The translations under genes were made by a program, and so were the position numbers. DNA of 64,000 bases from Pelagibacteraceae bacterium AG-422-N09 (lineage in GTDB: Bacteria; Pseudomonadota; Alphaproteobacteria; Pelagibacterales; AG-422-B15), in contig QCMV01000002.1 in assembly GCA_003213515.1 (NCBI GenBank), positions 57,740 to 121,739 on the forward strand, read 5' to 3'. The notes under the pieces were generated by a model that was given only the letters and a program-made list of their open reading frames with translations, made no database searches and had not been told where the DNA came from. Below are positions 13,645 through 54,970 of this stretch, one piece after another (the first letter of the stretch is position 1; every line of letters begins with the position of its first letter).

Positions 13645-15462
13645 ATGTTGAATGAAATAGAGCTAATTTGGAAACTGCCTCATAAAAAAACAGAAAAACT
13701 GTCAATTACTAAATATGTCGAAACTAACGGAATTGAAATAAGGAGAAGTTATTCAAATTTCATTCATAACCTCTCACATCAGAAAATAGGTAAAAAAAAA
13801 ATATATAATTTTTTTTTATTCAATAATCATTTTAATCTATGGTGGATGTCGCTTTTATATGAGAAAAACTTTTATAAATCAAAAAATATAAGTGAGTGCA
13901 TTAAAATTATAGGATTAGAGAAGATTATAAAAGAATTTAAGCCTCACACAATAAGACTTATATGTTCATCAAACAAAACTAGGAAGTGTATAATTGAATT
14001 ATGTAAACAGTTAGATGTTAATTTAAAAATTGATATCAAGAATAAATCTAAAAGATTTTCTAATTATAAATTTTTAAAAATTATAAAAAAAAATATTCCT
14101 TATTATTTACAAGGTTTTCTATTTCTCCTTTCTTATTATTTAAATGCTTTGAGTTTGAAAAAACTTAAAAAGCCATCTTGGATTAAATCATCAAGTAGTA
14201 TATTTTTATTTTCATATTTTACTCATTTAAAATTTAACAAAACAAACAAAAGCATTATAGAGTCAAGTCAATGGGAAGATGTTATTGGACTAATAAGAAA
14301 AAGAAGAAAGGATATTAACTGGTTACACTTTGATGGGATGACTAAAGATAATTATAAGAAAAAAAACTTCCTATCTTTATCGCCAAATAGTAAGCAATTT
14401 AGTGATTTTAACGAACAGCATTTTTTTTTAGAGGGCTATCTTAATATACAATTACTAATAAAAATTTTTTTTATTTATTCTTTTTTACATTTAAAATATT
14501 TAATATTTAGGCCTAAAAAAAATATTTTTTCAGTTAAAGATTCAAATATTAATTTATATCCCTTGTTAATTGATGATTGGCATGAATCATTTTCGGGAAT
14601 TATTTTAATGCAAAATATTATTTGGATAATATTGTTCGACTTAGCAATGAAGGACATTCCAAAAAGCAAATTTGGTCTTTTTCCTCAGGAAAATCAATCA
14701 TGGGAACGTGCATTCATCTCTTCGTGGAGAAAACATCAAACAGGAAAATTAATAGGTTATGCTCACTCCGATATTAGATTCTGGGATACCAAGTATTTCG
14801 AAAACGTGGAAATTTTTGAAAATGATAGTTTACGCTTTCCTTATTCAGATGCTTTAGCAATAAATTCTGAGAGAGCTTATGAAAACCTTATTAGTTCTAA
14901 ATTTCCGCAATCTAAAATTTTAAAGGTTGAGGCTGTAAGATATCTTCGAGTGTTAGAAAATGATAATAAAAGAAGTCTAAATGTTAATTCATTCAAAAAG
15001 ATATTAATTGTTGGTGATTACCAATTTCGATATAACTATAAGTTACTTGAAGATATATATTCATTAAATTTAAACCCAAAGAATTATAATCTTACATTTA
15101 AGTCTCATCCTGGTTTTCCAATTGATGTATCAAAATATAAATTATTTGGTTTAAAAGAAACAAATGAACCGCTTGAAGATATACTTCAGGATTATGATAT
15201 TATTGTAGCGGTAGACGCAACAGCATCTTCCATAGAGGCAGTTTTAATGAATAAATTTACTATAGTTTATTATGATAGTGCATATTTAAATTACAGTCCT
15301 TTAAGAAATAGTAACAGTGTTTCTTTTGCTAGCAATAAGTATGAGCTTGGTGAATATATAAAAAATTATGACTCAAAAGTCAAAATAGATAATCATAATT
15401 TACTCTATTTTAATAAAGACTTAAAACTCTGGAAAAATGTTATTGATAAATATGTTTACTAA
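13645..15462 (+). CDS. Large uncharacterised protein in the glycan operon, possibly an orphan transferase
   Basis: 605-aa uninterrupted ORF in very AT-rich DNA, co-directional with and 16 nt after the upstream gene. It has hydrophobic segments mid-protein. The C-terminal third (ILIVGDY..., KSHPGFP, DIIVAVDATASSIEAV) has a Rossmann-like alternation. I recognise no diagnostic motif. Confidence 0.5.
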   Translation: MLNEIELIWKLPHKKTEKLSITKYVETNGIEIRRSYSNFIHNLSHQKIGKKKIYNFFLFNNHFNLWWMSLLYEKNFYKSKNISECIKIIGLEKIIKEFKPHTIRLICSSNKTRKCIIELCKQLDVNLKIDIKNKSKRFSNYKFLKIIKKNIPYYLQGFLFLLSYYLNALSLKKLKKPSWIKSSSSIFLFSYFTHLKFNKTNKSIIESSQWEDVIGLIRKRRKDINWLHFDGMTKDNYKKKNFLSLSPNSKQFSDFNEQHFFLEGYLNIQLLIKIFFIYSFLHLKYLIFRPKKNIFSVKDSNINLYPLLIDDWHESFSGIILMQNIIWIILFDLAMKDIPKSKFGLFPQENQSWERAFISSWRKHQTGKLIGYAHSDIRFWDTKYFENVEIFENDSLRFPYSDALAINSERAYENLISSKFPQSKILKVEAVRYLRVLENDNKRSLNVNSFKKILIVGDYQFRYNYKLLEDIYSLNLNPKNYNLTFKSHPGFPIDVSKYKLFGLKETNEPLEDILQDYDIIVAVDATASSIEAVLMNKFTIVYYDSAYLNYSPLRNSNSVSFASNKYELGEYIKNYDSKVKIDNHNLLYFNKDLKLWKNVIDKYVY

Positions 15463-15488
15463 AATTTTTATTGGTATTATCTAGAATA

Positions 15489-16421
15489 ATGAAAATATTA
15501 GTAACTGGTGGGGCAGGATTCATAGGTTCTCATTTATGCGAGGCTTTATTGGGTAATAATAATAAAGTAACTTGTCTCGATAATCTATATACCGGGAATA
15601 AAGAAAATATTAAGAACTTAATTAGTAACCCAAATTTTGAGTTTATTGATTATGATATAACCAATCCTTTAAATCTCAAATTTGATCAGGTTTATAATTT
15701 AGCTTGCCCTGCTTCACCAACATATTACCAAAAAGATCCAATCAAAACTTGGGAAACAAACGTTATTGGAATTAACAATATTCTTAATATAGCAGAGAAG
15801 AATAAAGCTAAAATATTACAGGCCTCAACTAGTGAAGTCTATGGTGATCCGAAAGTTTCACCACAAAATGAAGATTACTGGGGAAATGTGAACCCAATCG
15901 GGATTAGATCTTGTTATGATGAAGGAAAGAGATCAGCAGAAGCTATTTGTATGGATTACTCTAGAAATAGAAATATTGACGTGAAAATTGCGAGAATATT
16001 TAACACATATGGATCAAAAATGCAGAGAAATGATGGTCGAGTAATCTCCAATTTTTTAGTTCAATCTATTTTGAATCAGAATATTACAATTTACGGTGAT
16101 GGCAGCCAAACCAGATCATTCTGTTACGTAGATGATTTGATACAAGGATTGATGGGTTTAATGAATGAAGATAAGATTAATCCTACTCCTTTAAACTTAG
16201 GAAATCCCAATGAATTTACAATTAGAGAATTAGCTGAGCATATTCTTAAAATTACTAAATCTAGGTCAAATATTTCTTTTCATGATCTTCCTTTAGATGA
16301 TCCCAAAATAAGAAAACCAGATATTAAAAGCGCGAAACAAAGGATTAATTGGGAGCCCAGAATTCAATTATTAGAAGGACTTGAGAGAACTTATAATTAT
16401 TTCAAACATATATTAATATAA
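15489..16421 (+). CDS. UDP-glucuronate decarboxylase (UDP-xylose synthase), extended SDR
   Basis: Motifs MKILVTGGAGFIGSHLCEALL, DNLYTG, STSEVYGDP and YDEGKR. The track start TTG 15471 is less likely than ATG 15489. Confidence 0.85.
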   Translation: MKILVTGGAGFIGSHLCEALLGNNNKVTCLDNLYTGNKENIKNLISNPNFEFIDYDITNPLNLKFDQVYNLACPASPTYYQKDPIKTWETNVIGINNILNIAEKNKAKILQASTSEVYGDPKVSPQNEDYWGNVNPIGIRSCYDEGKRSAEAICMDYSRNRNIDVKIARIFNTYGSKMQRNDGRVISNFLVQSILNQNITIYGDGSQTRSFCYVDDLIQGLMGLMNEDKINPTPLNLGNPNEFTIRELAEHILKITKSRSNISFHDLPLDDPKIRKPDIKSAKQRINWEPRIQLLEGLERTYNYFKHILI

Positions 16422-16439
16422 TGGGAAAATTATTTAATT

Positions 16440-17360
16440 ATGGATTTAGAAAATTTAGATAATAATCCAAGTCTCATTTCAGTAATTGTTCCTGTCTATA
16501 ACTCTGCCCATCTAATAACCAGACTGCTTGATTCTCTTGTCATACAATCATACAAATTATTTGAAGTACTTATATGTGATGATGGATCTACAGATAATTT
16601 AAAAGAAATAATAGACTCTTATAACTCAAAACTAGATATCAGATATTTTAAAAATAGTAACTTTGGCGGTCCTGCAGTTTCTAGAAATATAGGAATAAAA
16701 AACTCTAGAGGAACTTTTTTAGCTTTTGTTGACGCTGACGATTGGTGGAAAAGAGATAAACTTAAGATATGTTTAATGTCGTTTAATAAAAATACTGATT
16801 TCGTGTATCATGATCTAATAATACATAGAGAAAAATATAAATTTTTAGGAAAAAAAGTAATTAGAGGCGCAAAGTTAAAATCACCAGTTTTCACAAGTCT
16901 TATTAAAAAAGGTAATATAATTTGCAACTCATCAGTTGTAGTAAGAAAAAGTGTAATTATTAAATCAAATGGTTTTTCAGAAAATAAAGATATGATTGCT
17001 GCAGAAGACTATAATGCGTGGTTAAGAGTTTCAAAAATTTCAGATAAATTCAAATATATAAATAAGGCTTTAGGTTATTATTTTACAAATCATGGTATAA
17101 GCTTTAGTAGAGACATGTCAAAACCAACCCAAGTTGCAATTAATGAATTTATCAACGATTTAAAAGATAAAGAAAAACAAGAAGTTTTCTGGAAATTATC
17201 CTATATGAGTGGCATTTTTAATTTAAATAAAAAAAACTTTAATGTTTCTATCAAGAAATTAAAGGCAAGTTCGTCTTCTTCTGATATTAATATAAAAATT
17301 AAGTCATACTTACTTATAATCTTAGTTTACTTACTCATTATTTTTAGAGTAAAAAAATAA
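16440..17360 (+). CDS. Family 2 glycosyltransferase with a C-terminal membrane anchor
   Basis: Motifs ISVIVPVYNS, CDDGSTD and FVDADDWW. The terminal hydrophobic helix is YLLIILVYLLIIF. Confidence 0.85.
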   Translation: MDLENLDNNPSLISVIVPVYNSAHLITRLLDSLVIQSYKLFEVLICDDGSTDNLKEIIDSYNSKLDIRYFKNSNFGGPAVSRNIGIKNSRGTFLAFVDADDWWKRDKLKICLMSFNKNTDFVYHDLIIHREKYKFLGKKVIRGAKLKSPVFTSLIKKGNIICNSSVVVRKSVIIKSNGFSENKDMIAAEDYNAWLRVSKISDKFKYINKALGYYFTNHGISFSRDMSKPTQVAINEFINDLKDKEKQEVFWKLSYMSGIFNLNKKNFNVSIKKLKASSSSSDINIKIKSYLLIILVYLLIIFRVKK

Positions 17361-34451: not shown

Positions 34452-34526
34452 GGGCACGTAGCTCAGTGGTAGAGCATCACGTTGACATCGTGGGGGTTGT
34501 TGGTTCGATCCCAACCGTGCCCACCA
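34452..34526 (+). tRNA. tRNA-Val (anticodon GAC)
   Basis: Manual cloverleaf: acceptor GGGCACG/CGTGCCC, D arm GCTC-AGTGGTA-GAGC, anticodon arm TCACG-TTGACAT-CGTGG, T arm GTTGG-TTCGATC-CCAAC, encoded CCA. Confidence 0.9.
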
Positions 34527-50999: not shown

Positions 51000-51263
51000 A
51001 TGTCGAGTTATCAAGATTCAAAAGTTAAATTTAATGGTGCAATTGATAAACTTAGTGAGGAAATAGACAAATTAACAAAAAAAGCTCAAAGAGCTACAGA
51101 ATTGGAAGCGCAAAATCAAAAATTACAAGAAAATAACTCTCATCTAGAAAATGAAATTAAGATTCTTAAGTCAGATTTTATGGAACTTAAAAATATTGCA
51201 GGCAATATTTCTTCTCAACTCGATGAAAACATTTATACCATAAAAGATATATTAGACTCTTAA
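51000..51263 (+). CDS. Small coiled-coil protein upstream of zapA (ZapB/DUF4164-like by position)
   Basis: 87 aa with heptad-like Leu/Glu/Lys/Gln composition (ELEAQNQKLQENNSHLENEIKILK). It ends 3 nt before zapA. Confidence 0.5.
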   Translation: MSSYQDSKVKFNGAIDKLSEEIDKLTKKAQRATELEAQNQKLQENNSHLENEIKILKSDFMELKNIAGNISSQLDENIYTIKDILDS

Positions 51264-51266
51264 GCA

Positions 51267-51629
51267 ATGCCTGAAATAATTGTAAATATTAATGATCAAG
51301 ATTACGCAATTGTCTGCGATCCGGGTGAAGAAAACCATCTTAAACATTTAAGCTCAAAAATTGACTATAAAGTGAGAGAATTAACTAAGAGATTTGGAAA
51401 AATTGGAGAAACTAGATTAATGGTAATGGCTTCACTGTTAATAGCAGATGAAATTCATGAGCTAAATAAAAAACTAGAAACAAATATTGAAAAAATAAAT
51501 TCCCTTGAAGCAAACATTGGTTCAAAAGATAAAGAATTGACTGACCAGAAAAAAGAGAGTCAGGAATATATAGACATTAGCAACGATAGATTAACAGATT
51601 TATTATCACGCTTGACTCTTGTAAACTAA
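51267..51629 (+). CDS. zapA: Cell division protein ZapA
   Basis: The N-terminal pattern is IVNINDQDYAIVCDPGEENHLKHL, followed by a coiled-coil tail. It sits upstream of the MTHFS gene, as in many proteobacteria. Confidence 0.75.
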   Translation: MPEIIVNINDQDYAIVCDPGEENHLKHLSSKIDYKVRELTKRFGKIGETRLMVMASLLIADEIHELNKKLETNIEKINSLEANIGSKDKELTDQKKESQEYIDISNDRLTDLLSRLTLVN

Positions 51630-51656
51630 TTTTAAAAATTAGATTTCATTTTATAC

Positions 51657-52232
51657 ATGATGAAAAGTGTGCAACTGAGAGAAAAAGAAGCATTAAGAAA
51701 GTTTTTAATCAATCGACGCTCAGAACTTGGTCCATCAATAGATTTTCAGAGTAATATACTTAATAACATTAAGCCCCTCATAGAAGAAATAGAAAATGAA
51801 TATATTGGAACTTATATAAGTTTCAGAGATGAATTAGATACAAAAAAATTAAACCAAAATTTACTTGAAAGAGAACTTAATTTAGCTTTACCAGCCATAG
51901 ATTTTCAGACTAAAGAAATTAATTTCTTCACATATCATAAAAACACTGAACTAATAGAAAATAAATTTTCTATTTTAGAACCTAAGAATAAAGATAAAGT
52001 TATCTTTCCAAAAATTATTTTAATACCATTATTAGGTTATTCCAAAAGTGGCTTTAGGCTGGGGTACGGGGGTGGATATTATGATAAGTATTTATCAAAA
52101 AATGGTATTGGTGATGTAAAAAAAATAGGAATAGCATTTTCATTTCAAGAAGTAGAAGAAATTCCTGTCGAAGATCATGATGAAAGACTTGATTGGATTT
52201 TAACTGAAAAACATTTATATAAAGTTAAATGA
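51657..52232 (+). CDS. 5-formyltetrahydrofolate cyclo-ligase (MTHFS)
   Basis: Motifs LLGYSKSGFRLGYGGGYYDKYL and HDERLDWILTE. Confidence 0.85.
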   Translation: MMKSVQLREKEALRKFLINRRSELGPSIDFQSNILNNIKPLIEEIENEYIGTYISFRDELDTKKLNQNLLERELNLALPAIDFQTKEINFFTYHKNTELIENKFSILEPKNKDKVIFPKIILIPLLGYSKSGFRLGYGGGYYDKYLSKNGIGDVKKIGIAFSFQEVEEIPVEDHDERLDWILTEKHLYKVK

Positions 52233-53029: not shown

Positions 53030-53773
53030 ATGGCAGGCCACTCTAAGTTTAAAAACATTATGTACCGCAAAGGTGCACAAGACAAAAAGAGAGCTAGTTT
53101 ATTTTCTAAACTTTCAAAGGAAATTACGGTAGCAGCTAAGTTAGGTGCGCCTGATCCTGATCAAAACGCAAGATTAAGATCGGCTATACAATTAGCAAAA
53201 GCCTCAAGTTTCCCTAAGGAAAATATTGATAGAGCCATAAAAAAATCTTTGGATAAAGATACTGTTAACTATGATCAAATGAGGTACGAAGGATTTGGTC
53301 CAAACGGAACGTCGATAATTGTCGAGGCACTGACGGATAATCGAAATAGAACAGCCTCAAATGTAAGATCTACATTTCAAAAATTTGGAGGTTCAATGGG
53401 CGAAACAGGTTCAGTCTCCCATGCATTTAATCATTATGGTTTTGTGCGTTACAACAAAGACGTGACAAGTGAAGAAGATTTTTTCAACTTTTCAATTGAG
53501 GGTGGAGCTGAAGATTGTTTTATCGAAGAAGATACTTATGAAGCAGTATCCACGCCAGAAACTCTATCAAATTTATATAATTATTTAGATAAAAAATTTG
53601 GTGAACCTGTATCATCAGGTTTCCAATGGAAACCTGTTACGTATGTAGCAATAGAGGGAGATAAACTTAAATCCCTTATTAACATGCTCAATGAACTTGA
53701 TAATGACGAGGATGTTCAACAAGTCTTTTCAAATTTTGAGGCATCAGACGAAGAATTAGCAAAGTTTGCTTAA
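53030..53773 (+). CDS. yebC: YebC/PmpR-family transcriptional regulator
   Basis: Motifs MAGHSKFKNIMYRKGAQDKKR and YEGFGPNG. Confidence 0.95.
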   Translation: MAGHSKFKNIMYRKGAQDKKRASLFSKLSKEITVAAKLGAPDPDQNARLRSAIQLAKASSFPKENIDRAIKKSLDKDTVNYDQMRYEGFGPNGTSIIVEALTDNRNRTASNVRSTFQKFGGSMGETGSVSHAFNHYGFVRYNKDVTSEEDFFNFSIEGGAEDCFIEEDTYEAVSTPETLSNLYNYLDKKFGEPVSSGFQWKPVTYVAIEGDKLKSLINMLNELDNDEDVQQVFSNFEASDEELAKFA

Positions 53774-53840
53774 TTTATTCACTTTCAAAAAAAAATTATA
53801 TGAATTAATCTTAAATTATTAAGTAATTCTGATTCGCTTT

Positions 53841-54221
53841 ATGCCAGGTAGTTCTCCAAAAAGAAAAGGTGATGGATACGAGAGAGAGCTTGCGAAGTAC
53901 TTTAATGAAAAGATTTTTAATGGAGAAGATAAAGTTCAACGTATGCCTTTGTCAGGTGGTGGTGCTATCAAATCTTCTGGAGGAAGTGATTTAAAAAATA
54001 CTCCTCATATATACGTCGAAGCTAAAAGAACTGAAAAGTTCAAAATTCATGAGTCAATGAGACAAGTATGCGAAAATATTGAAACATCTAAATCAGACTC
54101 AATGCCGGTTGTCATAACGAGAAGAAATCGAGAGGCAACAGGGGACTCACTTTGTGTTTTGAAACTTGACGATTTTATAGAACTTTATCGAATATTAATT
54201 AATAGTAAAAAAGGACTTTAG
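53841..54221 (+). CDS. PD-(D/E)XK nuclease resembling archaeal Holliday-junction resolvase Hjc
   Basis: The 126-aa protein carries KGDGYERELAKYF ... RMPLSGG ... GSDL ... IYVEAKRTEK. This has the same order and spacing as the Hjc pattern KGxxxEREL...RxxxSG...D(L/I)...(I/V)E(V/A)K. Confidence 0.55.
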   Translation: MPGSSPKRKGDGYERELAKYFNEKIFNGEDKVQRMPLSGGGAIKSSGGSDLKNTPHIYVEAKRTEKFKIHESMRQVCENIETSKSDSMPVVITRRNREATGDSLCVLKLDDFIELYRILINSKKGL

Positions 54222-54265
54222 GATTTGCCCTAATTAAGACAATATTTAATAATAATTGAAAAATT

Positions 54266-54970
54266 ATGGAAAACGAAGATTTAGTAAGTGTTAGCCAAGT
54301 AAATGATGAGTTCACATTAATTTCACTTTTTTTTAGAGCGGATATTGTCGTAAAGTTAGTGATTCTAATTCTATTTGCTTCTTCTATTTTCTCATGGACT
54401 ATAATAATTCATAAAATTCGTTTATTTCGTTCTTTAAAAGAAATCAGTAAGCAATTCGAGGAGGAATTTTGGTCGGGAAGATCAATAAAAGAAATCACTA
54501 GTAGTACGAGAGAATTACCAGAAAGTCCAATTAAGTATGTTTTCAATGAAGCTGTTGACGAGATTGAAAAGTCTAATCAGGAAACTACAAAAAAAATAGA
54601 TAGTTTAGTTGATAGATTAAATCGTGTTATGGAGGCAGCAATAGATTTTCAAAATGAGAAGCTATCTGAATACTTTAGTTATTTAGCAACAATAGGCGCT
54701 ACGACTCCATTTATTGGATTATTTGGAACGGTCTGGGGTATAATGAATTCTTTTCAATCTATTGCCATTTCAAGAAATACCTCCCTTGCAGTAGTTGCTC
54801 CTGGAATAGCTGAAGCATTATTTGCAACTGCTCTTGGTTTATTAGCAGCAATACCTGCTGTTATTGCTTACAATATATTTACTAGTCAGGTGAATGATGA
54901 AAATGCACGAATGTATCGATTTAAAGAACATTTTAATGTTATTTTCTCAAGAGGCTTGAGTACGAAATAG
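54266..54970 (+). CDS. tolQ: Tol-Pal system protein TolQ
   Basis: MotA/TolQ/ExbB channel: ATIGATTPFIGLFGTVWGIMNSF, VAPGIAEALFATALGLLAAIPAVIAYN. Confidence 0.9.
   Translation: MENEDLVSVSQVNDEFTLISLFFRADIVVKLVILILFASSIFSWTIIIHKIRLFRSLKEISKQFEEEFWSGRSIKEITSSTRELPESPIKYVFNEAVDEIEKSNQETTKKIDSLVDRLNRVMEAAIDFQNEKLSEYFSYLATIGATTPFIGLFGTVWGIMNSFQSIAISRNTSLAVVAPGIAEALFATALGLLAAIPAVIAYNIFTSQVNDENARMYRFKEHFNVIFSRGLSTK

Follow-up and report, generated by a model that had tools for sequence, protein, structure and literature searches.

A phage-family nuclease with a predicted Hjc-like active site in the ruv slot of SAR11 bacteria

RuvC, a Holliday junction resolvase (EC 3.1.22.4) with an RNase H-like fold, works together with RuvAB, and the displacement of resolvases by others, such as RecU, RusA or Hjc, is a familiar phenomenon. 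RecU of Firmicutes and Mollicutes is a PD-(D/E)XK enzyme that has displaced RuvC non-orthologously in a large lineage while RuvAB is retained, and RusA, encoded by the defective prophage DLP12 of E. coli, reportedly makes ruvA, ruvB and ruvC dispensable once it is expressed, in a RecG-dependent manner. In archaea, Hjc and Hje (PF01870; structures 1gef, 1hh1, 4tkd, 2wcw and 1ob8) are PD-(D/E)XK proteins. Here we describe a small gene, X, that lies between yebC and tolQ in a 64,000-nucleotide stretch of the SAR11 genome Pelagibacteraceae bacterium AG-422-N09 (contig QCMV01000002.1, positions 57,740 to 121,739; G+C 30.3%), the whole of which we call the window. We consider it probable that a domesticated phage resolvase resembling Hjc, probably in partnership with RecG, has replaced RuvABC in SAR11. 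The features on which the argument turns are as follows.

53841..54221, + strand: gene X, predicted Hjc-like PD-(D/E)XK nuclease, Pfam family PDDEXK_15 (open reading frame; Pfam; PHROG; AlphaFold 2, AF2, model; Foldseek; hhalign; ratio of nonsynonymous to synonymous substitution rates, dN/dS)
E14, D50, E60 and K62 of X, + strand: predicted catalytic residues (conservation and hhalign to Hjc)
Within 53841..54221, + strand: basic N-terminal KRKG segment and glycine-rich flexible loop, residues 38-48 of X
53030..53773, + strand: yebC (TACO1/YebC family), upstream flank and usual upstream neighbour of ruvC (Pfam PF20772 and PF01709)
54266..54970, + strand: tolQ, downstream flank and first gene of tolQ-tolR-tolA-tolB-pal (Pfam MotA_ExbB, E 2.6e-35; gene calls on contigs L001-L006; synteny)

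X starts with ATG, encodes 126 residues and is the single open reading frame of at least 50 residues in the gap between yebC and tolQ; the spacers on its two sides measure just 67 nucleotides (towards yebC) and 44 nucleotides (towards tolQ), so gene remnants have no room there. A preliminary description, made from the letters alone, had proposed an archaeal Hjc-like resolvase at 53774-54265, standing where other proteobacteria have their ruv genes. The list of reading frames bears out that a 126-residue frame is the sole gene between the end of yebC at 53773 and the start of tolQ at 54266, and both flanking genes are what they were said to be, YebC by PF20772 and PF01709 and TolQ by MotA_ExbB; the coordinates mark the right gap but span all of it, the reading frame itself being 53841-54221. 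The motifs that had been quoted, KGDGYEREL, RMPLSGG, SDL and VEAKRTEK, are all present in the translation, in which KRKGDGYEREL occupies residues 7-17, RMPLSGG 34-40, SDL 49-51 and VEAKRTEK 59-66.

Compared with the described systems, X has in common with Hjc and Hje a length of ~120-140 residues, a predicted PD-(D/E)XK core, the same predicted order of secondary-structure elements and an E...D...ExK tetrad that aligns residue by residue. It differs in that the hhalign alignment covers only the N-terminal ~78 residues of X, that a glycine-rich SGGG...GG loop stands where Hjc has a basic loop, and that its family is bacterial and phage-borne in distribution, not archaeal. The phage proteins of PDDEXK_15/PHROG 244, such as gp22 of phage CRP-810 ('Holliday junction resolvase'), belong to the same Pfam family, are 45-57% identical to X and have all of its conserved residues. 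They are encoded in replication modules beside primase/polymerase genes, often near an integrase, and many have an acidic C-terminal tail of 20-60 residues, whereas the SAR11 copy is tailless and belongs to the chromosomal core, fixed in place between yebC and tolQ. RusA, as a phage-derived resolvase, is the laboratory precedent and the closest functional one for the role proposed for X, although it has an unrelated fold and a sequence preference and is a silent accessory gene in E. coli rather than a fixed core gene. RecU shares with X the PD-(D/E)XK class and the non-orthologous displacement, proposed in the case of X, but is of a different family, and it works with RuvAB, which SAR11 appears to be without. 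With RuvC, X shares the predicted reaction and the position after yebC.

The sequence comparisons place X in a family of marine phages. Against Pfam PF24608 (PDDEXK_15, phage putative PDDEXK endonuclease) it scores 34.9 bits (E 1.8e-08, residues 7-121), above the gathering score of 27 bits and thus within the family, and a precomputed PF24608 match is present on most of its SAR11 homologues; against PHROG 244 the E value is 1e-20. Such matches lie far outside what chance would give. The Pfam scan returned at E <= 1 only PDDEXK_15, Hjc and DUF2130: the RuvC family (PF02075) is absent from these matches, X having no similarity to RuvC, and RecU (PF03838) gave no match. An NCBIfam scan yielded no meaningful match and a direct search of PDB sequences with X nothing relevant. 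A RusA identity, suggested by the PHROG 244 label 'RusA-like', is not supported, as no RusA family is found among the Pfam matches at E <= 1 and the structural neighbours are PD-(D/E)XK proteins. We collected 265 homologues of X, and an exhaustive profile search brought up 1258 cluster representatives at E <= 0.001. Among 32 distant members, 30 match PF24608 and three also match Hjc PF01870 (E <= 0.01; best E 4.9e-05), so the family of X borders Hjc. Judged by its sequence, then, X is a member of the marine-phage family PDDEXK_15 and a remote relative of archaeal Hjc.

E14, D50, E60 and K62 are invariant across 107 distinct family members, and so are R34, S38-G41, A61, R63, E65, Q75, R94 and S103; E14 and E60/K62 (ExK) fall within peptide patterns by which many of these 107 sequences were retrieved, while the other positions do not. 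In an alignment independent of the patterns, D50, E60 and K62 are again invariant and E14 is kept in at least 90% of rows, and the four positions are also conserved in the 32 distant members. When the profile of the pattern-independent alignment is compared by hhalign with four solved Hjc/Hje sequences, the match has a probability of 82.7% and an E value of 9.6e-06 (91.2% probability against Sso Hjc alone), and E14, D50, E60 and K62 of X pair with E9, D33, E46 and K48 of P. furiosus Hjc, whose query sequence we confirmed to be identical to 1gef_A. The latter four are reportedly the catalytic residues of that enzyme, and the tetrad columns are invariant among the solved Hjc/Hje sequences. The pairing bears out the earlier observation insofar as X has an E-D-ExK active site of the Hjc type.

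The predicted structure points in the same direction. The AF2 model of X has a mean predicted local distance difference test (pLDDT) value of 84.4 and elements in the order alpha-beta-beta-beta-alpha-beta-beta-alpha, with the N-terminus and the glycine-rich loop at 39-46 disordered. Among solved structures, the best seven Foldseek matches are all Hje or Hjc, at weak scores (top probability 0.97); viral models score better, with E values down to 2.8e-10 and a template modelling (TM) score of 0.77, and among them are several phage proteins labelled 'Holliday junction resolvase'. Together with the profile comparisons, this would make X a remote homologue of Hjc.

The second line of evidence is the position of the gene. 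In E. coli, yebC and ruvC are adjacent, and the order yebC-ruvC-ruvA-ruvB recurs in many metagenome loci; metagenomic contig L236 has the full series yebC-ruvC-ruvA-ruvB-ybgC-tolQ-tolR-tolB, its ruvC-to-ybgC block taking up ~2.7 kb against 0.38 kb in SAR11. Pseudomonas aeruginosa (PA0964-PA0974) and several alphaproteobacteria presumably have the same yebC-ruvCAB-ybgC-tol order. STRING gives YebC, YbgC, TolB, TolQ and TolR as neighbours of RuvA, RuvB and RuvC (PMC3403352). On the order in L236 and these neighbours, X does stand at the place of ruvC-ruvA-ruvB-ybgC of other proteobacteria, as had been proposed. No RuvA, RuvB, RuvC or YbgC was found in the window, or within 10 kb on either side of X in any SAR11 locus, by tblastn with the E. 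coli proteins. Hidden Markov models (HMMs), run against the six-frame reading frames of the window, likewise gave none of the four, the sole match being the AAA domain of FtsH to RuvB at 18 bits, and the same models found none within 10 kb on either side in eight SAR11 loci. These models were built from 42 RuvA, 88 RuvB, 15 RuvC and 2 YbgC sequences, the last being the weakest of the tests, and YebC, as a positive control, scored 251 bits. Both searches thus agree with the preliminary description that the window holds no RuvC, RuvA, RuvB or YbgC.

A scan of metagenome contigs with an AT-biased pattern for the Walker A motif of RuvB supplied L236 as well as sequences for the Ruv models and gave at least 120 loci. 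Among the matches listed, none of these AT-rich RuvB loci has a SAR11-like YebC, the best being 42% identical. One marine contig (L195; Ga0160422_10060871, 2198 bp, 30% G+C) has yebC-ruvC-ruvA-ruvB with a YebC 39% identical to that of SAR11; it is from another streamlined marine lineage that retains RuvABC.

For the rest of the genome, the all-gene table of Ca. P. ubique HTCC1062 is informative: it contains 'ruv' once, as SAR11_0593 'ruvC', and has no entry for ruvA, ruvB or 'Holliday junction helicase' (PMC2864753, Table S1). SAR11_0590-0594 read 5-formyltetrahydrofolate cyclo-ligase, hypothetical, hypothetical, 'ruvC' and tolQ, which is the order of the window; on the basis of this identical order, SAR11_0593 is the equivalent of X, and the two hypothetical proteins SAR11_0591 and SAR11_0592 are, by position, YmdB and YebC. 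The same table lists recA, recG, recO, recR, recJ, priA, rmuC, sbcB and uvrD and leaves recF, recN, recQ, radA, mfd, recB and addA unlisted (PMC2864753), and a 2025 paper describes SAR11 as being without RecBCD, RecF and MutSL (PMC12374537). It appears from the HTCC1062 table that the whole RuvABC resolvasome is gone, not RuvC alone, and we infer the same absence for AG-422-N09. The earlier proposal that RuvC was displaced at its ancestral position holds insofar as X sits in the ruv slot and the table is without ruvA and ruvB; it needs amending in that RuvAB appears to have been lost too and in that the displacing family is one of phages. On the genome-wide search for ruv genes that had been suggested, the annotation of the related strain HTCC1062 gives a sole 'ruvC', the slot gene.

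Several results weigh against this reading. On the side of the enzyme, X stays below the threshold of the archaeal Hjc family PF01870 (13.3 bits, E 0.084; gathering score 21.1 bits), the family profile found Sulfolobus Hjc among the PDB sequences with an E value of 0.2, which is not significant, the seven Foldseek matches to Hje and Hjc are weak (E 0.011-0.28, TM 0.35-0.46, the E of 0.011 going with a TM of ~0.44), the PD-(D/E)XK fold is used in many other nuclease roles, and we found no biochemical data for any PF24608 member. On the side of the genome, the loss of RuvABC outside the window and its flanks is read from the annotation table of a related strain; the full ancestral order is shown on L236 only, a contig that looks gammaproteobacterial; the RuvB pattern scan, with its many loci, is uninformative on absence; and the one entry with 'Holliday' in the HTCC1062 table, SAR11_1079, labelled a putative Holliday junction resolvase, beside gatC and pyrB (PMC2864753), is probably of the YqgF/RuvX type. 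The search against PF01870 and related families thus leaves the proposed archaeal Hjc-like resolvase half standing: the E-D-ExK active site is of the Hjc type, but the protein belongs by Pfam to the neighbouring phage family PF24608. Despite the insignificant E value, the motifs common to the family of X and Sso Hjc, KRKGxxxER at the N-terminus, RAPxSG and ExK, seem telling.

These points bear on two other explanations. X could be a domesticated nuclease of phage origin that does other work, such as processing branched or damaged DNA of other kinds (flaps, forks, D-loops), degrading foreign DNA, or serving as a solitary restriction-like or defence enzyme; junctions would then be left to dissolution by topoisomerase/RecG or to the YqgF-type protein. 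The versatility of the fold, in a family named only 'putative endonuclease', the remoteness of all likeness to characterised resolvases, the function of the nearest phage relatives, assigned by homology only, and the presence in SAR11 of SAR11_1079 all speak for such a role. YqgF, however, is now seen chiefly as a nuclease of pre-16S rRNA, every top structural or profile match to a characterised protein is to a junction resolvase, and X occupies the ruv slot of a lineage without annotated ruvABC. Nor does X resemble a defence gene: it matched none of the PADLOC-DB defence models (0 families at E <= 1), its neighbours are yebC and tolQ, no methylase or defence partner being beside it, and its position is fixed and its conservation at housekeeping level. 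We therefore regard a different job as unlikely. RuvA and RuvB are near-universal in bacteria, and the sequence that we read amounts to the 64-kb window and the 10-kb flanks of a ~1.3-Mb genome, to which the RuvB scan adds nothing on absence; a normal RuvABC might accordingly be encoded elsewhere, X being an accessory, redundant resolvase that came to lie beside yebC by chance, much as RusA is in E. coli K-12. The HTCC1062 table, with its single 'ruvC' being the slot gene, the position of X directly after the usual partner of ruvC in 47 of 47 loci, and the lack of a SAR11-like YebC among the RuvB loci listed make this improbable. YebC itself is, according to recent work, a translation factor, and the adjacency of yebC and X is hence evidence of history, not of function.

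Across the SAR11 loci fetched, the gene order is constant. A scan of the genome collection gave 47 loci titled Pelagibacteraceae or Pelagibacterales, with X 75-100% identical, and in every one of those fetched (47/47) the order is ymdB-yebC-X-tolQ-tolR, which answers the call for a synteny comparison in the preliminary description: the slot is shared by all. At loci whose YebC is down to 62-70% identity and YmdB to 61-64%, X is still 75-79% identical. Against a close relative, at an unsaturated dS of 0.32, its dN/dS is 0.042, the values of the neighbours in the same comparison being 0.043 (yebC), 0.044 (ymdB) and 0.039 (tolQ), and at larger distances the dN of X is no higher than that of most neighbours. 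None of the 39 distinct SAR11 sequences has lost the reading frame or a predicted catalytic residue, and the exact protein occurs in 1651 collection blocks, including single contigs of 1.15-1.41 Mb from long-read marine assemblies. X is a core gene of SAR11 under purifying selection at housekeeping level. Two irregularities were seen in these data. An NCBI record of 150 residues (P0009) matches X at 99% identity across 94% of the length of X but has 24 residues more, with an EFP_N Pfam match, and is probably a chimeric gene call or a misassembly. In several long-read SAR11 contigs of 1.1-1.4 Mb (L001-L006, locus ~15430-16520 and other genes), tilS, ftsH, efp or glmM is split into two calls, which looks like residual assembly frameshift errors, not biology.

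Outside SAR11, the relatives of X are found with phages. The best identity there is 57%, and all of the non-SAR11 relatives examined have a phage or prophage context except for one unclear locus, L055. A single match was obtained in 50,697 phage records, to gp22 of Roseobacter phage CRP-810, which adjoins a primase/polymerase gene with an integrase nearby; a close homologue in cultured pelagiphages was not found in these records. IMG/VR contributed 238 relatives, and one of the viral contigs, L062, encodes a primase-polymerase, an endonuclease VII-like protein and an integrase. The nominally cellular matches are in prophages as well, with terminase and portal genes in L057, phage primase/polymerase in L054, L056, L058 and L059 and an integrase also in L058; L267 and L268 likewise have prophage contexts, and the proteins P0099 and P0082 are in Prim-Pol/AAA_24/integrase/amidase contexts. 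A neighbour-joining tree gathers the 39 distinct SAR11 sequences into a single long-stemmed clade, whose sister group consists of 22 viral or prophage sequences; such a tree, built from a 127-column alignment, does not prove which way the gene moved. One ancient capture of X from a phage is the simplest reading as regards both the direction and the timing of the transfer. For the displacement by an archaeal Hjc-type enzyme, the consequence is that 'Hjc-type' can be kept and 'archaeal' cannot, as the nearest relatives of X are marine phages and prophages.

With non-SAR11 relatives whose readable contexts are all phage or prophage, X might also be an inert remnant of a prophage or mobile element. 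A dN/dS of ~0.04, with a dN not above that of most housekeeping neighbours, and the intact frame and catalytic residues are not what a remnant would show; no other phage genes, integrase or repeats are near X, and the HTCC1062 microarray data include the slot gene, placing it in an expression cluster. Selection and synteny effectively refute a remnant, which we hold to be scarcely credible, and together with the PADLOC results they led us to reject the reading as a defence nuclease as well.

Under the explanation that we prefer, a domesticated phage resolvase in place of RuvABC, the SAR11 ancestor would have acquired X from a phage and fixed it at the old ruv locus, with ruvC-ruvA-ruvB-ybgC, ~2.7 kb in L236, being lost and 0.38 kb left. 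X would be a small endonuclease of the PD-(D/E)XK superfamily, dependent on Mg2+ and specific for DNA structure, and, by analogy with Hjc, a homodimer; it would bind the four-way (Holliday) junctions that RecA creates and nick a pair of opposed strands, leaving nicked duplexes fit for ligation, and RecG, present in HTCC1062, would supply any branch migration and fork processing. The junction specificity, the dimeric state and the partnership with RecG are all inferred. Hjc-type enzymes cut without a cognate sequence, while RuvC needs RuvAB to bring the junction to its cognate site; with a cutter free of a sequence requirement, RuvAB would become dispensable. A broader reading, which we put forward tentatively and think somewhat doubtful, is that SAR11 dropped RuvABC and resolves its intermediates with one phage-derived, sequence-independent Hjc-like nuclease and RecG as part of a rewired minimal pathway, alongside the loss of MutSL, RecBCD and RecF, which would help to explain its high and promiscuous homologous recombination; an invariant GANTC motif upstream of X may then tie expression of the gene to cell-cycle methylation by CcrM.

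As such, the resolvase role is no novelty: in the 2005 annotation of HTCC1062 the slot gene appears as 'ruvC, crossover junction endodeoxyribonuclease', and since this is the only 'ruvC' of that genome, the role was already annotated, under a wrong family name; the orthologues of X are labelled 'Holliday junction resolvase' in IMG and 'hypothetical protein' in three NCBI records. Judged by the sequence comparisons, the name 'ruvC' for SAR11_0593 is a misnomer, and our analysis corrects both it and the 'hypothetical protein' of NCBI. Full-text literature searches found no paper in which Hjc/COG1591 is linked to SAR11 or the ruv genes of SAR11 are discussed. SAR11, which outnumbers every other bacterial clade in the ocean, is noted for very high homologous recombination (PMC12374537). 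What makes X interesting is this organism and the apparent loss of near-universal machinery; the kind of enzyme is already known. If the loss of RuvABC and the domestication of a phage resolvase are true, the endgame of recombination in SAR11 is non-canonical, and the locus is an example of streamlining in which ~2.7 kb of genes were swapped for 0.4 kb, a natural counterpart of the rusA suppressor experiments in E. coli. The wider impact is moderate because displacements of this kind are familiar and IMG already predicts the role.

Two short elements flank the gene.

53830..53836, + strand: invariant TGATTCG, containing the GANTC (CcrM-type) site GATTC at 53831-53835, 4 nucleotides upstream of the ATG of X
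54226..54241, + strand: conserved block TGCC(C/T)nA(A/T)TTA(A/T)GACA in the spacer between X and tolQ (alignment of 10 SAR11 loci)

The first does not vary among 10 SAR11 loci in which YebC identity goes as low as 62%, and the 64 kb contain the 7-mer a single time, where 5.65 copies would be expected. The window is depleted of GANTC, having 148 sites where shuffles have 205 +/- 11.7, as one would expect of an alphaproteobacterium whose methylation is of the CcrM type. TGATTCG is a possible regulatory or translation-initiation element. The block in the downstream spacer overlaps a promoter-like TTGCCC-17-AATAAT at 54225-54253, a site no commoner than in shuffles, and may be a candidate promoter of tolQ; promoter and terminator scans around X did no better than shuffles. 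A CtrA box in the same spacer was dropped, as its second half-site is not conserved. In HTCC1062, SAR11_0593 falls in a 'stationary phase' expression cluster with recG, uvrD, recJ, priA and ligA, and tolQRAB in an 'exponential' one (PMC2864753); these differing clusters lend weak support to separate transcription of X and the tol genes.

Further upstream in the window, 27 nucleotides (51629-51657) separate zapA from the 5-formyltetrahydrofolate cyclo-ligase gene, the interval that holds ssrS in E. coli. Rfam gave no 6S RNA at 51629-51657, its sole match in the window being tRNA-Val at 34452-34526. Directly upstream of zapA (51267-51629) lies an 87-residue coiled-coil reading frame at 51000-51263, with no Pfam match on record, which by its position resembles ZauP, the partner encoded upstream of ZapA in Caulobacter.

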